The notes beneath the pieces are model-generated. The model did no database searches and was not told the DNA's origin. It was given only the letters and a program-made list of their open reading frames with translations. The translations under genes and the position numbers were made by a program. A stretch of 64,000 bases of DNA from Phycisphaerales bacterium (GTDB lineage Bacteria > Planctomycetota > Phycisphaerae > Phycisphaerales > UBA1924): assembly GCA_020847535.1 (NCBI GenBank), contig JADLBU010000003.1, positions 29,998-93,997 on the forward strand, given 5' to 3'. Shown here piece by piece: positions 4,409 to 38,080 of this stretch; the stretch's first letter is position 1; each line of letters begins with the position of its first letter.

Positions 4409-5521
4409 TTACGGAATGAACATCCGGGCGGCGAAACGGTCCTGTTCCCGGGCGAAGTCGATCGGTGGTGGCGGAAGCTCGATGTAGCGCGGCGGCTTGC
4501 CGAGAGCCTTCTTGATCTCGCGATCGAATCGGCCGGGGAGGCAGAGTTCGCGGGTGTTGGTGGAGGCGAAGATGGCGCCCTTGGGTCGAAGGAGCGACGC
4601 GGCTTCGTGGATGAGTTTGGGGTAGTGTTCGGTGGAGGACCAGGCGGGGATCTTTTTCTTCTTGCTTGCGGTCGAGAAGCTTGGTGGGTCGAGGATGATG
4701 AGGTCGTAGGTGAGTTTCTTTCGGCGGGCGTAGCGGAAGAACTCGAAGGTATCCATCTTCGCGAAGCGGTGGGTGTCGGGGAGGGTGGGATCGATGCCGT
4801 TGTGGGCGAAGTTGCGTTTGCCCCAGTCAAGGTACTTGGGGGAGATGTCGACGCTGGTGGTGAGGGCACCGGCGAGCGCGCAGGAGATGGAGAAAGCGCA
4901 GGTGTAGGCGAAGGTGTTGAGGACTTGGAGTGGAGGGGTGGCAGCGCTTCGGTCGGCGGCATTGGAAGTACGAGGAGAACCCTCCCCCGGCCCCTCCCTC
5001 CGGGAAGGGAGCCAAGAGGCGAGAAAGCGGCGGTTGTCGCGCTGGTCGGAGAAGAGGCCGGTGGAGAAGCTATCGAAGAGGCGGACCTCAAATCGGCAGT
5101 TGCGCTCACGGATCACGATCGCTTCATCAAGAGGTTCCCCGGCGGCGGGCGTGGGGTCGGTCAGGACCACGGGAGCGTTGCCGCCGAGGCGCGAGCGGTC
5201 CTTGGCGAACGGCTTGAGGTAGATCGCGGTTACGCCCAGCTCGGCGGTCTGGGCGAGCAGCTCCTTGGCGGCCTTCATCACCTGGAAATCGCCGGGGACT
5301 CGGCCCTCGTAAAGGATGAGCACGCAGCCGGGGCCGTAGCGGTCGATGAAGATGCCATCGATGCCATCGGCAGCGCCGCCGAAGAGGCGGAGGGCTTGGA
5401 TCGCGTCATCTCGCAGCAGGGGGCTTCGACGCTTGATCGCGGCGGCGAGCAGATCGGAGAATGGTCGTGTTGCGGTGGAGGCGGTCGGAGCGATGGGAGT
5501 TTGGAGATGTGGGTGGGGCAT
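4409..5521 (-). CDS. Class I SAM-dependent RNA methyltransferase, RlmI/RlmK-like
   Basis: 370 aa. N-terminal PUA/EEHEE-like part, then VLNTFAYTCAFSISCALAGA..TSVDISPKYLDWGKRNFAHNG..YDLIILDPPSF (SAM motifs I and IV). Carries an extra segment, SRREGPGEGSPRTSNAADRSAATPP, encoded by a palindromic repeat. Confidence 0.8.
   Translation of the reverse strand: MPHPHLQTPIAPTASTATRPFSDLLAAAIKRRSPLLRDDAIQALRLFGGAADGIDGIFIDRYGPGCVLILYEGRVPGDFQVMKAAKELLAQTAELGVTAIYLKPFAKDRSRLGGNAPVVLTDPTPAAGEPLDEAIVIRERNCRFEVRLFDSFSTGLFSDQRDNRRFLASWLPSRREGPGEGSPRTSNAADRSAATPPLQVLNTFAYTCAFSISCALAGALTTSVDISPKYLDWGKRNFAHNGIDPTLPDTHRFAKMDTFEFFRYARRKKLTYDLIILDPPSFSTASKKKKIPAWSSTEHYPKLIHEAASLLRPKGAIFASTNTRELCLPGRFDREIKKALGKPPRYIELPPPPIDFAREQDRFAARMFIP
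4977..5012. repeat. C/G-tract palindromic element, copy inside the methyltransferase CDS
   Basis: gaaccctcccccggcccctccctccgggaagggagcc; about 85 percent identical to 37157-37189. Contains the self-complementary CTCCCT...AGGGAG. Confidence 0.8.
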
Positions 5522-5530
5522 TCAAAGGCA

Positions 5531-5624
5531 GAGTCTTTACCACAGAGGCACAGAGAACACAGAGAAAACCAATTCTCACTGTTTCATCCTCCGCGATTTC
5601 TATGCCTCCGTGGCGAGTCTTTCC
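5531..5624. repeat. CAC(A/G)GAG word-hairpin element, copy 1
   Basis: Left arm gagtctttaccacagaggcacagagaacacagagaaaacc; right arm cctccgcgatttctatgcctccgtggcgagtctttcc. CCACAGAGGCA vs TGCCTCCGTGG are complementary apart from transition mismatches. Lies between the DUF885 stop and the methyltransferase start. Confidence 0.75.
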
Positions 5625-36351: not shown

Positions 36352-37020
36352 TCAGCGCGGCGGCTGGGTGTCGATGGGAGAGAGCAGGGCGAGCCACTCC
36401 AGGTTTCCATCGGCTTTGCTGCCGCCTCGCAGCGGGGAGCGCGTGAAGCCGTCGATCGATACACCCATCGCGGGGAGTTGGGCGAGCACGTAGTCGGCGA
36501 TCTGCTCGGCGAGATCATCGGGGAGGATGCCTCGGGAGCCCTCGGCTTTGGCAGCGAACGGGGAGTGCTTGGCTTCGTAGTGCGGTTTGATGAGGGTGAG
36601 GATCGCGGGGGTCGGTGGGCCGGTGATGGGAGCACCGACTTGCTCAGAGCCGCAAGTCGGTGGCACGGGTTTGTGGATGGGTTTGAGCCACTTGAGCGCC
36701 ACGGGGATCAGCGACTTCTGCGGGGTCCAGCCGAGATCGACGACGACGAGGTCGACGGGCGCGGGGGGTTCGGTGTGCAGGGCGTTTGTGCGCTCCATCA
36801 CCACCACGCGAGGATCCTTGCGGAGTTTCCAGGCGAGCTCGCCGTAGGCGGTGTCGATCGCGTAGACCTTGGCAGCGCCGGCCTGGAGCAGGCAGTCGGT
36901 GAAGCCGCCGGTGCTGCAGCCCAGATCGGCGCAGGTCAGTCCCGTGACATCGACATTGAATTCATCGAGGGCGTGGCGGAGTTTGGCACCGCCGCGGCTG
37001 ACGTAAGGGCCGGTGCTCAT
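36352..37020 (-). CDS. tlyA: TlyA-family rRNA 2'-O-methyltransferase (FtsJ-like), no S4 domain
   Basis: 222 aa. YVSRGGAKLRHALDEFNVDVTGLTCADLGCSTGGFTDCLLQAGAAKVYAIDTAYGELAWKLRKDPRVVVMERTNA. Confidence 0.8.
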   Translation of the reverse strand: MSTGPYVSRGGAKLRHALDEFNVDVTGLTCADLGCSTGGFTDCLLQAGAAKVYAIDTAYGELAWKLRKDPRVVVMERTNALHTEPPAPVDLVVVDLGWTPQKSLIPVALKWLKPIHKPVPPTCGSEQVGAPITGPPTPAILTLIKPHYEAKHSPFAAKAEGSRGILPDDLAEQIADYVLAQLPAMGVSIDGFTRSPLRGGSKADGNLEWLALLSPIDTQPPR

Positions 37021-37050
37021 GCCAGACCCCTCCCCGAGGGAGGTGCCAGG
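37021..37050. repeat. C/G-tract palindromic element, related copy abutting the tlyA start
   Basis: gccagacccctccccgagggaggtgccagg, with CCTCCC / GGGAGG stem (37029-34 / 37038-43). Confidence 0.6.
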
Positions 37051-37156
37051 GATGGGTTGCGTGTGGCAACAGCAGCCGTGATGTGAAAACGGTTGCGTAC
37101 AGGCAGAGATGCTGACGTCAGGGATTCGTGAGATGAAGGCTTGGGGTGGATGAAGG

Positions 37157-37189
37157 GAACCCTCCCCAACCCCTCCCTCGGGGAGGGGC
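37157..37189. repeat. C/G-tract palindromic element, intergenic copy just downstream of the lpxI stop
   Basis: gaaccctccccaacccctccctcggggaggggc. Perfect 8-bp stem CCCCTCCC (37170-77) / GGGAGGGG (37181-88), loop TCG. Confidence 0.8.
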
Positions 37190-37192
37190 TCT

Positions 37193-38080
37193 TCAAGGCT
37201 GCGCGGTCGGGATGCCTACGACGGAGATCCCGACCTCATCGGCCAAGTCGAGAACCTTCTGCTTCTCGAGCATGATGACATCCCCGGCGGCGAGCGCCAG
37301 GCAGCCTCCGCCATTGGCGGCCATGTTCTCGATGGTCTTGGTGCCGATGGTGGGGACATCGGAGCGGCGATCGTGGCCGGCGCGGGCGCCCTTGCAGAGG
37401 GTCCAGCCCTTGGCTTTGCAGATGTGTCCGACGCGTTCGATCATGCGGTCGGTGCCTTCGACGGCCTCGACGGCGACCACATCGTGCTCCCGAACGACCA
37501 TCGCCTGTCCGATGTCCAAGCGGAGGATCTCGGTGAGCATGGGCCAGACGAACTCGACATCCCCCATCTGGGCGGGGGTGGGCCGGCGCTGGGTCATCAC
37601 GCCCGGGGTCGCGATCTCATCCGGGATCGAGGAGGTCGAATCCAGCAGGGCGACCCCGCAGCGGTCGAGCTCCTCGGCGATCGCCGAGAGGACGGCATGG
37701 GAGCGGTGGTCCTTGCGGAGGTGGCGATACCAGGCGACCACGGTTCGGATGTCGGGGATGTTGCGCACGAGCCTGAATGGATCGTGCATGATCTTGGCCT
37801 TGTCTACGCGACCGACCATGATTGCGTGGCGGACACCCATGCGGGCCAGGATGCGCCCCCAGGTGCCGACCTTGAGCACCCCGACTTCCCGGAATGAGGA
37901 GCAGAGGACGGGGAGTTCGGCTTCGTACTGGCGGAAGAGGCCCAGGGCGTGGACAGGGTGCCCGGCATCCCGCAGGCCGCGGGCGACCAGGACCGGGAGC
38001 TGCCCTCCCCCCGCGATCAGACCGACGGGGGTCGGCGGAGGTGGTGGATCGGGCAGGATCGTGAGTGCGGACGCAATCAT
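37193..38080 (-). CDS. lpxI: UDP-2,3-diacylglucosamine pyrophosphatase LpxI (DUF1009)
   Basis: 295 aa. GLIAGGGQLPVLVARGLRDAGHPV.., DIGQAMVVRE, VPTIGTKTIENMAANGGGCLALAAGDVIMLE..ADEVGISVVGI. Matches the LpxI two-domain pattern as I recall it. Confidence 0.7.
   Translation of the reverse strand: MIASALTILPDPPPPPTPVGLIAGGGQLPVLVARGLRDAGHPVHALGLFRQYEAELPVLCSSFREVGVLKVGTWGRILARMGVRHAIMVGRVDKAKIMHDPFRLVRNIPDIRTVVAWYRHLRKDHRSHAVLSAIAEELDRCGVALLDSTSSIPDEIATPGVMTQRRPTPAQMGDVEFVWPMLTEILRLDIGQAMVVREHDVVAVEAVEGTDRMIERVGHICKAKGWTLCKGARAGHDRRSDVPTIGTKTIENMAANGGGCLALAAGDVIMLEKQKVLDLADEVGISVVGIPTAQP

Follow-up and report, generated by a model that had tools for sequence, protein, structure and literature searches.

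How does a C/G-tract DNA element come to lie in frame inside an rRNA methyltransferase gene while related copies occupy noncoding DNA of the same genome? The question is raised by a 64,000-nucleotide (nt) stretch, hereafter the window, of a Phycisphaerae metagenome-assembled genome (MAG), assembly G000 (4.94 Mb, 134 contigs, 64.8% GC, 91% completeness), in which it spans contig C3:29998-93997. The database names of the closest proteins point to Phycisphaerae, Planctomycetota; the sister species is referred to as G001. The first-pass annotation of the window reported a 36-nt string at 4977-5012 within the coding sequence (CDS) 4409..5521. The string is indeed located there, in a minus-strand open reading frame (ORF), where it encodes part of ..SWLPSRREGPGEGSPRTSNAADRS.., and it represents the core of the second of the following features.

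4409..5521, minus strand: host gene, class I S-adenosylmethionine (SAM)-dependent rRNA methyltransferase, RlmI/RlmK-like, 370 amino acids, PF10672.
4955..5008, C-rich element strand plus, antisense to the CDS: putative decayed in-frame copy, ~51 nt, residues ~172/173-188/189, PSRREGPGEGSPRTSNA.

Judged from sequence comparison, the segment at 4955-5008 is very probably an old, decayed in-frame copy of a small nonautonomous interspersed repeat. The repeat itself is represented in the window by a full-length copy next to the lpxI gene.

37134..37193, plus strand: copy B, full-length intergenic copy (nhmmer 63.5 bits, E = 5e-17).

A blastn-short search with copy B returns more than 20 near-identical matches of 30 to 33 nt genome-wide, and alignment of these copies with their flanks (n = 22) reveals a longer unit of ~55 to 57 nt. 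It consists of a 20-nt 5' arm, CTTGGGATGGATGGAGGCAA, followed by CCCTCCCCAA, the hairpin CCCCTCCC-TCG-GGGAGGGG, and CTTT. The arm is G/C-poor and pairs with the first C tract; the hairpin of the consensus has a perfect 8-bp stem and a 3-nt loop, and the unit is a double hairpin. The 36-nt element of the first-pass annotation is the core of a real repeat, but the true unit measures ~57 nt and includes the 20-nt arm. An nhmmer profile built from the 22 copies, with the methyltransferase copy excluded, finds 26 copies in G000 at E < 1e-5 and 4 more at E < 0.03. A second round with all members adds none, so that the genome search proposed in the first-pass annotation ends with a family of ~30 copies in this assembly, 24 strong and 6 weaker. 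When the genome is compared with itself, 22 regions group together as this family, apart from the other families of repeats. Matches to a 30-nt core pattern with at most 3 mismatches number 20 in G000, 1 in G001, and 0 in 39 other relatives; by BLAST, G001 has two copies and four other congeners have none. The family is restricted to this lineage, and these copy counts indicate that it is as old as the genus and was amplified in the G000 species.

The consensus contains no stop codon in any of the six frames. A canonical four-tract G-quadruplex (G4) motif is present on the G-rich strand of 16 of the 30 copies. This motif, GGGAGGGG-TT-GGGGAGGG, overlaps the 3' half of the hairpin (for example, at 4975-5000 and 37160-37180 of the window, both on the minus strand), so that the hairpin and G4 folds would exclude each other. 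A tiny ORF in the element (ATG...TGA) was dropped as a candidate, neither its start nor its stop being kept among the copies. An Rfam search with the repeat gives merely a subthreshold match to a snoRNA and no Rfam family.

Although left out of the profile, the methyltransferase segment is matched by it at 4959-5008 (model positions 4 to 52 of 60, 17.9 bits, E = 0.0084 for the whole genome). The main alternative, which we consider quite unlikely, is chance resemblance: a hypervariable, Pro/Gly/Arg-rich low-complexity linker in a 65% GC genome, grown by slippage or other indels, could drift into similarity with a C-rich element. The nulls outside true copies stay well below the observed score, at a maximum of 12.9 bits in ten block shuffles that keep the local composition and 8.5 bits in the reversed genome. 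All scores above 9 bits in the reversed genome (up to 17.3) come from true copies read in reverse, the C-tract core being nearly symmetric; to that extent, C-tract symmetry alone can score sizeably, which favors chance. The arm of the intragenic copy, however, CATTGGAAGTACGAGGAGAA, occupies the 20 nt upstream of the C tracts and is neither low in complexity nor a C/G tract. Scored with a position weight matrix (PWM) of the arm built from 24 strong copies, with the intragenic copy left out, it reaches 12.3 bits, a value attained by 41 of 200000 random genomic sites when a 2-nt shift either way is allowed (p ~2e-4), and this match is independent of the C/G tracts. The word GAAGTACG in this arm is common to the copies at C70:14481, C70:18708, and C106:44165.

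The pairwise comparisons point in the same direction. The alignment of the core of the segment with that of copy B has three gaps and 30 identical columns out of 36 (83%), which comes near the ~85 percent given in the first-pass annotation, and identity to the consensus is 36/54 (67%). Against a variant copy of the sister species, G001:C43, 36 of 42 positions are identical (86%) over core and arm, including the arm sequence GGGTTCTCCYCGTAC. This argues against chance, and in view of this identity the intragenic copy looks like a member of an older subfamily common to G000 and G001. Among 13 orthologous linkers, only the one from G000 matches the profile, and we regard its membership in the family as established. 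The segment is not palindromic, contrary to the original description: its hairpin has decayed to 5 to 6 bp, and neither strand folds better than shuffled sequences (z = +1.2 to +1.6). It also carries indels that shift the internal frame, which is -2 at first and then -1.

The host protein matches PF10672 (E = 1.5e-13, 51 bits versus a cutoff of 27 in Pfam). The NCBIfam models for RlmK/L, RlmI, m5C1962, and m5C2499 all match it far under their equivalog cutoffs, the best being RlmK/L (121 versus 466); the equivalog level for RlmI is not reached either (NF011707, 71 bits versus 712). Its AlphaFold (AF2) model has a mean predicted local distance difference test score (pLDDT) of 85.7 and, in Foldseek searches, superposes on SMU.776 (3ldf/2b78), 3vse, and E. 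coli RlmI (3c0k) with template modeling (TM) scores of 0.70 to 0.73. The host is thus a protein with a PF10672 domain and a predicted RlmI-like fold, the substrate of which is not assignable from equivalog scores. The segment falls in the linker between the motifs DQRxNRR and VLNTFAYT, and the length of this linker, measured between the two motifs, varies as follows.

Distant orthologs: 7 to 10 residues.
PDB relative 2b78: 11 residues.
Broad Phycisphaerae family: ~15 residues, consensus W-V-x-x-R-x-x-x-x-G-x-x-P-x.
G000: 31 residues.

The distant orthologs align with the G000 protein in two blocks, skipping query residues ~172-198. When deletions of 9 to 26 residues are slid along the linker, removal of 15 to 17 residues within 171-192 gains 13 to 14 bits against the ortholog profile. 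At a resolution of a few codons, these excess residues coincide with the repeat match (residues 172-188), a further point against chance. With PSRREGPGEGSPRTSNA removed, the protein reads ..SWL-ADRSAATPP.., which in our reading resembles the family sequence ..DWVKDRARASGKPP... An extra segment is therefore present, as the first-pass annotation stated, but it amounts to 15 to 17 residues on top of a family linker of ~15 residues and not to ~20 residues in place of a short turn. The ortholog alignment that it called for yields no homologous segment in any ortholog. Neither of the two results named there as refuting the idea has thus come about, further copies being plentiful in the genome. The structure model, also called for, places the insert in a coil between the helix 158-173 and the strand 199-203. 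Over residues 171-190, the pLDDT drops to 69 and 51, and it is under 50 at residues 181-184, compared to 85.7 overall. The position in a low-confidence loop is established, and the combination of coil and low pLDDT agrees with a tolerated surface loop immediately ahead of Rossmann strand 1.

Several observations weigh against an insertion of the repeat at this place. When the intragenic copy is used as the query of a plain BLAST search, the family is not recovered: the best match is 20 nt long (E = 0.036), and the matches are C tracts of 12 to 20 nt. This failure counts in favor of chance, and the link to the family is carried entirely by the profile, the PWM, and the pairwise comparisons. The orthologs from the same genus all have enlarged linkers of 14 to 65 residues with unrelated sequences and no detectable repeat origin, which likewise favors chance, and another expansion process is evidently active at this linker, to judge from these sequences. 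BLAST searches of each relative's genome with its own linker DNA show no repeat source; the same test fails for the G000 insert too and is uninformative. The nearest relative that lacks the insert is only 67 to 70% identical at the protein level and provides no clean empty site, so that the boundaries are good to a few codons and a target-site duplication is unreadable. Finally, all seven Y1_Tnp matches in this MAG lack a copy within 1.5 kb, and there is no linked transposase; at 91% completeness, a REPtron, a RAYT (Y1 transposase) gene with copies on its flanks, may be missing from the assembly. As an observation on the linker itself, its growth appears to be independent in each same-genus ortholog (L002-L008, P0004 with ~65 residues, P0006, and P0008).

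The origin of the methyltransferase segment from the repeat gains weight from other genes of G000. Every copy was screened for surrounding coding-like open frames and then checked against Pfam and orthologs, which leaves ~25 copies between genes and 5 in frame, the latter spread over 4 genes, the methyltransferase included. The three further genes are as follows.

C106:60817-63243: GH2-like hydrolase; two copies, residues ~468-521; orthologs in G001-G004 and G012 skip ~472-521.
C93:101075-103873: GH38-like hydrolase; one copy, residues 831-849; segment lacking in G003 and G026.
C106: Wzy_C/O-antigen-ligase-like protein; one copy, residues ~707-725, between predicted membrane segments; absent or shorter in orthologs.

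The absence of these in-frame copies from orthologs is established, and the first-pass suggestion that one element is both extragenic and intragenic, in the manner of Rickettsia palindromic elements (RPEs), is borne out by these three genes. The encoded peptides match the predictions from the respective consensus frames: LPNPSLGEGL (frame +0, twice), QPSPTPPSGRG (+1), and PLPEGG (-1). The intragenic copies as a whole occur in both orientations and in at least four frames (+0, +0, +1, -1, and -2/-1). Four unambiguous in-frame copies elsewhere in G000 speak against chance in the methyltransferase as well.

The two copies in the GH2-like gene (G000:C106:61682-61840; L031:1366-1524) form a head-to-head doublet of exactly 159 nt, or 53 codons, with the arms inward and the hairpins outward. 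The doublet is REPIN-like, and its arrangement is the same as that of copies B and C at the lpxI locus. The Wzy_C frame (L033/L046, G000:C106:43553-46339) has 928 codons and corresponds to two adjacent genes in relatives, with stops between query residues ~372 and 388 in G002-G005 and two separate matches in G001; in G000, either these genes are fused or the frame is open by chance. The cases of LeuRS, ArgG, DUF1570, C83, and C2, in which an ORF covers the repeat, were rejected as intragenic, since the Pfam domains start downstream and the repeat lies in the 5' leader.

A trivial origin, by misjoining of a repeat into the gene during assembly or binning, has in its favor only that G000 is a MAG in 134 contigs, and it is effectively refuted. 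The frame is intact, and the copy is diverged from all others, so it is not a collapsed read pile. An independent Logan assembly from another run, L074, shows the same context; it is 99.4% identical over 4.6 kb, with 14 differences in the gene and the same 51 nt.

The same pair of strains bears on a different proposal, namely, that the insert is an exapted module, either because an RNA or DNA structure (a sense-strand G4 competing with the hairpin) regulates the gene or because the peptide serves the enzyme. Exaptation would agree with the identity of the insert in two strains whose copies of the gene have 14 other differences, although a pair of strains this similar (99.4% identity) has no power to reveal constraint. 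On its mRNA-sense strand, the insert retains a four-tract G motif, GGGAGGGGCCGGGGGAGGG; 16 of the 30 copies have a canonical G4 motif, and the intergenic copies next to stop codons suggest an RNA-level role for the family. The decayed hairpin, however, folds more weakly than shuffled sequences, the peptide forms a low-confidence coil that all orthologs lack, and the intragenic copies, with their differing frames and orientations, share no common peptide. Exaptation thus seems very unlikely, and the insert has most likely been tolerated as a passenger without serving as a functional module.

Copy B stands in the spacer between two genes on the minus strand, accompanied by a partial variant of the repeat.

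36352..37020, minus strand: FtsJ-like (TlyA-type) methyltransferase without S4 domain (PF01728, 6.7e-27).
37021..37046, minus strand: copy C, partial variant, hairpin core only (nhmmer E = 0.021).
37193..38080, minus strand: lpxI, UDP-2,3-diacylglucosamine hydrolase LpxI (PF06230, 2.3e-43; PF17930, 1.6e-24).

The Pfam matches agree with the original naming of the flanking genes as tlyA and lpxI. The core of copy B, at 37157-37189, has a 3-nt loop closed by the perfect 8-bp stem CCCCTCCC/GGGAGGGG and lies directly after the lpxI stop, as reported at the outset; the predicted two-hairpin fold of the whole copy has an energy of -31 to -32 kcal/mol. Copy B is antisense to lpxI, and its hairpin end adjoins the LpxI stop codon (TCA on the plus strand, 37192-37194), so that, on the gene-sense strand, the stop precedes the hairpin by 7 nt. 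Copies B and C stand head-to-head (37021-37193). The claim of a related copy at 37021-37050 holds as far as relatedness goes, but copy C is a partial variant that ends at 37046; it is identical to the family in the 17-nt hairpin core and has nothing more in common with it. The variant CCTGGCACCTCCCTC... is common to copy C and the copy at G000:C97:16830.

The end of copy C is 4 to 6 nt upstream of the start codon (ATG) of the FtsJ/TlyA-like gene. Its mRNA strand (window 37015-37030), GGGGAGGGG, places a GGAGG ~8 nt upstream of the start, and from this spacing copy C may supply the ribosome-binding site of the gene. A tblastx hint of an orthologous lpxI locus around the G001:C43 copy was rejected, as tblastn searches with LpxI and the FtsJ-like protein found nothing.

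The position of copy B is typical of the family. Most copies are intergenic, and on the G-rich strand ~10 of the 22 strong intergenic copies start 2 to 20 nt past the stop of a gene-like ORF reading into the hairpin end; in one case, the stop codon falls within the hairpin loop. Examples of such stop-adjacent copies are window 37186-37196, G000:C50:59172, C82:2923, C37:14619, C70:14536, C6:90489, and C42:122161. The junction shows a loose consensus, CTTYTRAAAG, followed by CCCCTCCCC, and given this looseness, the stop-like TRA triplet may belong either to the element or to a favored stop-codon target context. In the intragenic copies, the same triplet is a sense codon (CGA, TCA, CAG, or TGG). 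By analogy with repetitive extragenic palindromic (REP) elements, this placement next to stop codons makes a 3'-untranslated-region stem-loop the likely niche or role of the family.

These features suggest how the methyltransferase could have acquired its insert. The repeat would have been amplified to ~30 copies in the G000 species, with the first few bases past the stop of a gene reading into the hairpin end as its usual home. One copy would have landed, or been fixed, antisense and in frame between the N-terminal-domain helix (158-173) and Rossmann strand 1, adding ~17 residues (PSRREGPGEGSPRTSNA) to a loop already variable in length. As the element has no stop in six frames, any frame-keeping insertion would leave the gene open, and selection would retain those in tolerant loops alone. 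The same process would account for the GH2, GH38, and O-antigen-ligase-like genes. In the methyltransferase, the hairpin would since have decayed, and indels would have shifted the internal frame.

Arrival by transposition is the presumed route, and the responsible enzyme is possibly one of the HUH/Y1 transposases of the genome, acting on the hairpin. G000 contains seven Y1-transposase matches (PF01797), two of them full-length (G000:C35:110591 and C83:11136). No parent insertion sequence (IS) was recognized in a search that covered Y1 transposases alone. A single unit has no terminal inverted repeats (TIRs), its arm end and hairpin end being different, and neither a GTAG nor a CGTC tag is found at the consensus ends or in the alignment. 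The flanks show just a common CTTYTRAAAG-like end, the relatives (at most 70% identical) being too distant for the junctions to be read, and head-to-head pairs occur at two loci alone, B/C and GH2.

The C/G-tract family is not the only repeat of G000 found inside genes. The GGCACTG/GGGCACT heptamer-word family consists of ~100-nt hairpins at ~70 loci, 12 of them within coding-like open frames. One of its copies lies in frame in the GH38 gene, at residues ~203-240 (L032:2565-2714; G000:C93:103139-103288), and is common to the orthologs in G001, G002, and G003 and lacking in G026 and G034. The FliI site in the window is a GAGACG-word hairpin, unrelated to the C/G-tract element, and a CACAGAG-word hairpin, another repeat type of this kind, is located at 5531-5624, directly upstream of the methyltransferase start. 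The self-comparison of G000 yields at least five further small palindromic families (for example, with GCTGAAGC or GGCGCAGCC loops), with 6 to 13 detected copies each. The genus thus has the in-frame insertion of repeats as a general trait, and its occurrence in other repeat families raises the prior for the methyltransferase case.

It is tempting to go further and propose that, in this genus, several unrelated hairpin families (the C/G-tract element and the GGCACTG and GAGACG word hairpins), open in all frames, routinely seed surface-loop sequence in housekeeping and envelope proteins and act in mRNA as stop-adjacent hairpin/G4 switch modules, the in-frame copies being systematic loop innovation shaped by selection on the elements and not accidents. 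We consider this extension unlikely. As it stands, the case adds a large, high-GC environmental planctomycetote genome, with at least three repeat families, to the examples of selfish DNA colonizing genes, classically known from Rickettsia and Coxiella. Annotators gain an explanation for low-complexity, lineage-specific loop inserts in otherwise conserved enzymes and a warning of a repeat end that coincides with many stop codons; for the repeat field, the case provides a compact element with neither a REP tag nor TIRs.

The closest parallels are found in four kinds of elements. The RPEs (Ogata et al. 2000, as summarized in PMC10969869) are ~100 to 150 bp long, with one conserved peptide in one frame per family. 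The C/G-tract element resembles them as a short, hairpin-forming interspersed repeat that occurs between genes and, in frame, in unrelated housekeeping genes at sites compatible with the fold. In contrast to RPEs as described there, its unit is ~57 nt, and both orientations and at least four frames are represented among its five intragenic copies; homology to RPEs in sequence is not expected. In addition, its copies are mostly intergenic, whereas many RPEs are intragenic, and its host is a high-GC member of the Phycisphaerae, not a reduced, AT-rich intracellular genome.

Several species have been reported to contain intragenic REPs, and REP families are also described for Planctomycetes (Di Nocera et al. 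2013, PMC3733652), and REP superfamilies carry a conserved GTAG or CGTC tetranucleotide at one end (PMC3733652). Like REPs and bacterial interspersed mosaic elements (BIMEs), the element is a small GC-rich stem-loop with species-specific amplification, located mostly at gene 3' ends near stops, with occasional intragenic copies and head-to-head dimers (B with C and the GH2 pair). Unlike REPs, it has a second, 5' arm/hairpin, exceeds the usual 20 to 40 bp, numbers just ~30 copies, and has no GTAG/CGTC tag, and its copies flank none of the seven Y1 transposase genes.

[quoted passage not shown] The element is MITE-like as a nonautonomous short repeat with insertions able to extend or interrupt ORFs in frame; it differs in having no TIRs in the single unit, and in size it ranks among the smallest MITEs. 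The word-hairpin repeats of G000 itself are likewise intergenic hairpins with in-frame copies in protein loops, but they measure ~90 to 100 nt, are built of heptamer words, and have an architecture unrelated to the C/G-tract double hairpin. Intragenic REPs and in-frame MITE fusions being already known, what is new here is the lineage and the repeat: the element is not a canonical REP, MITE, or RPE, yet it behaves like all three.

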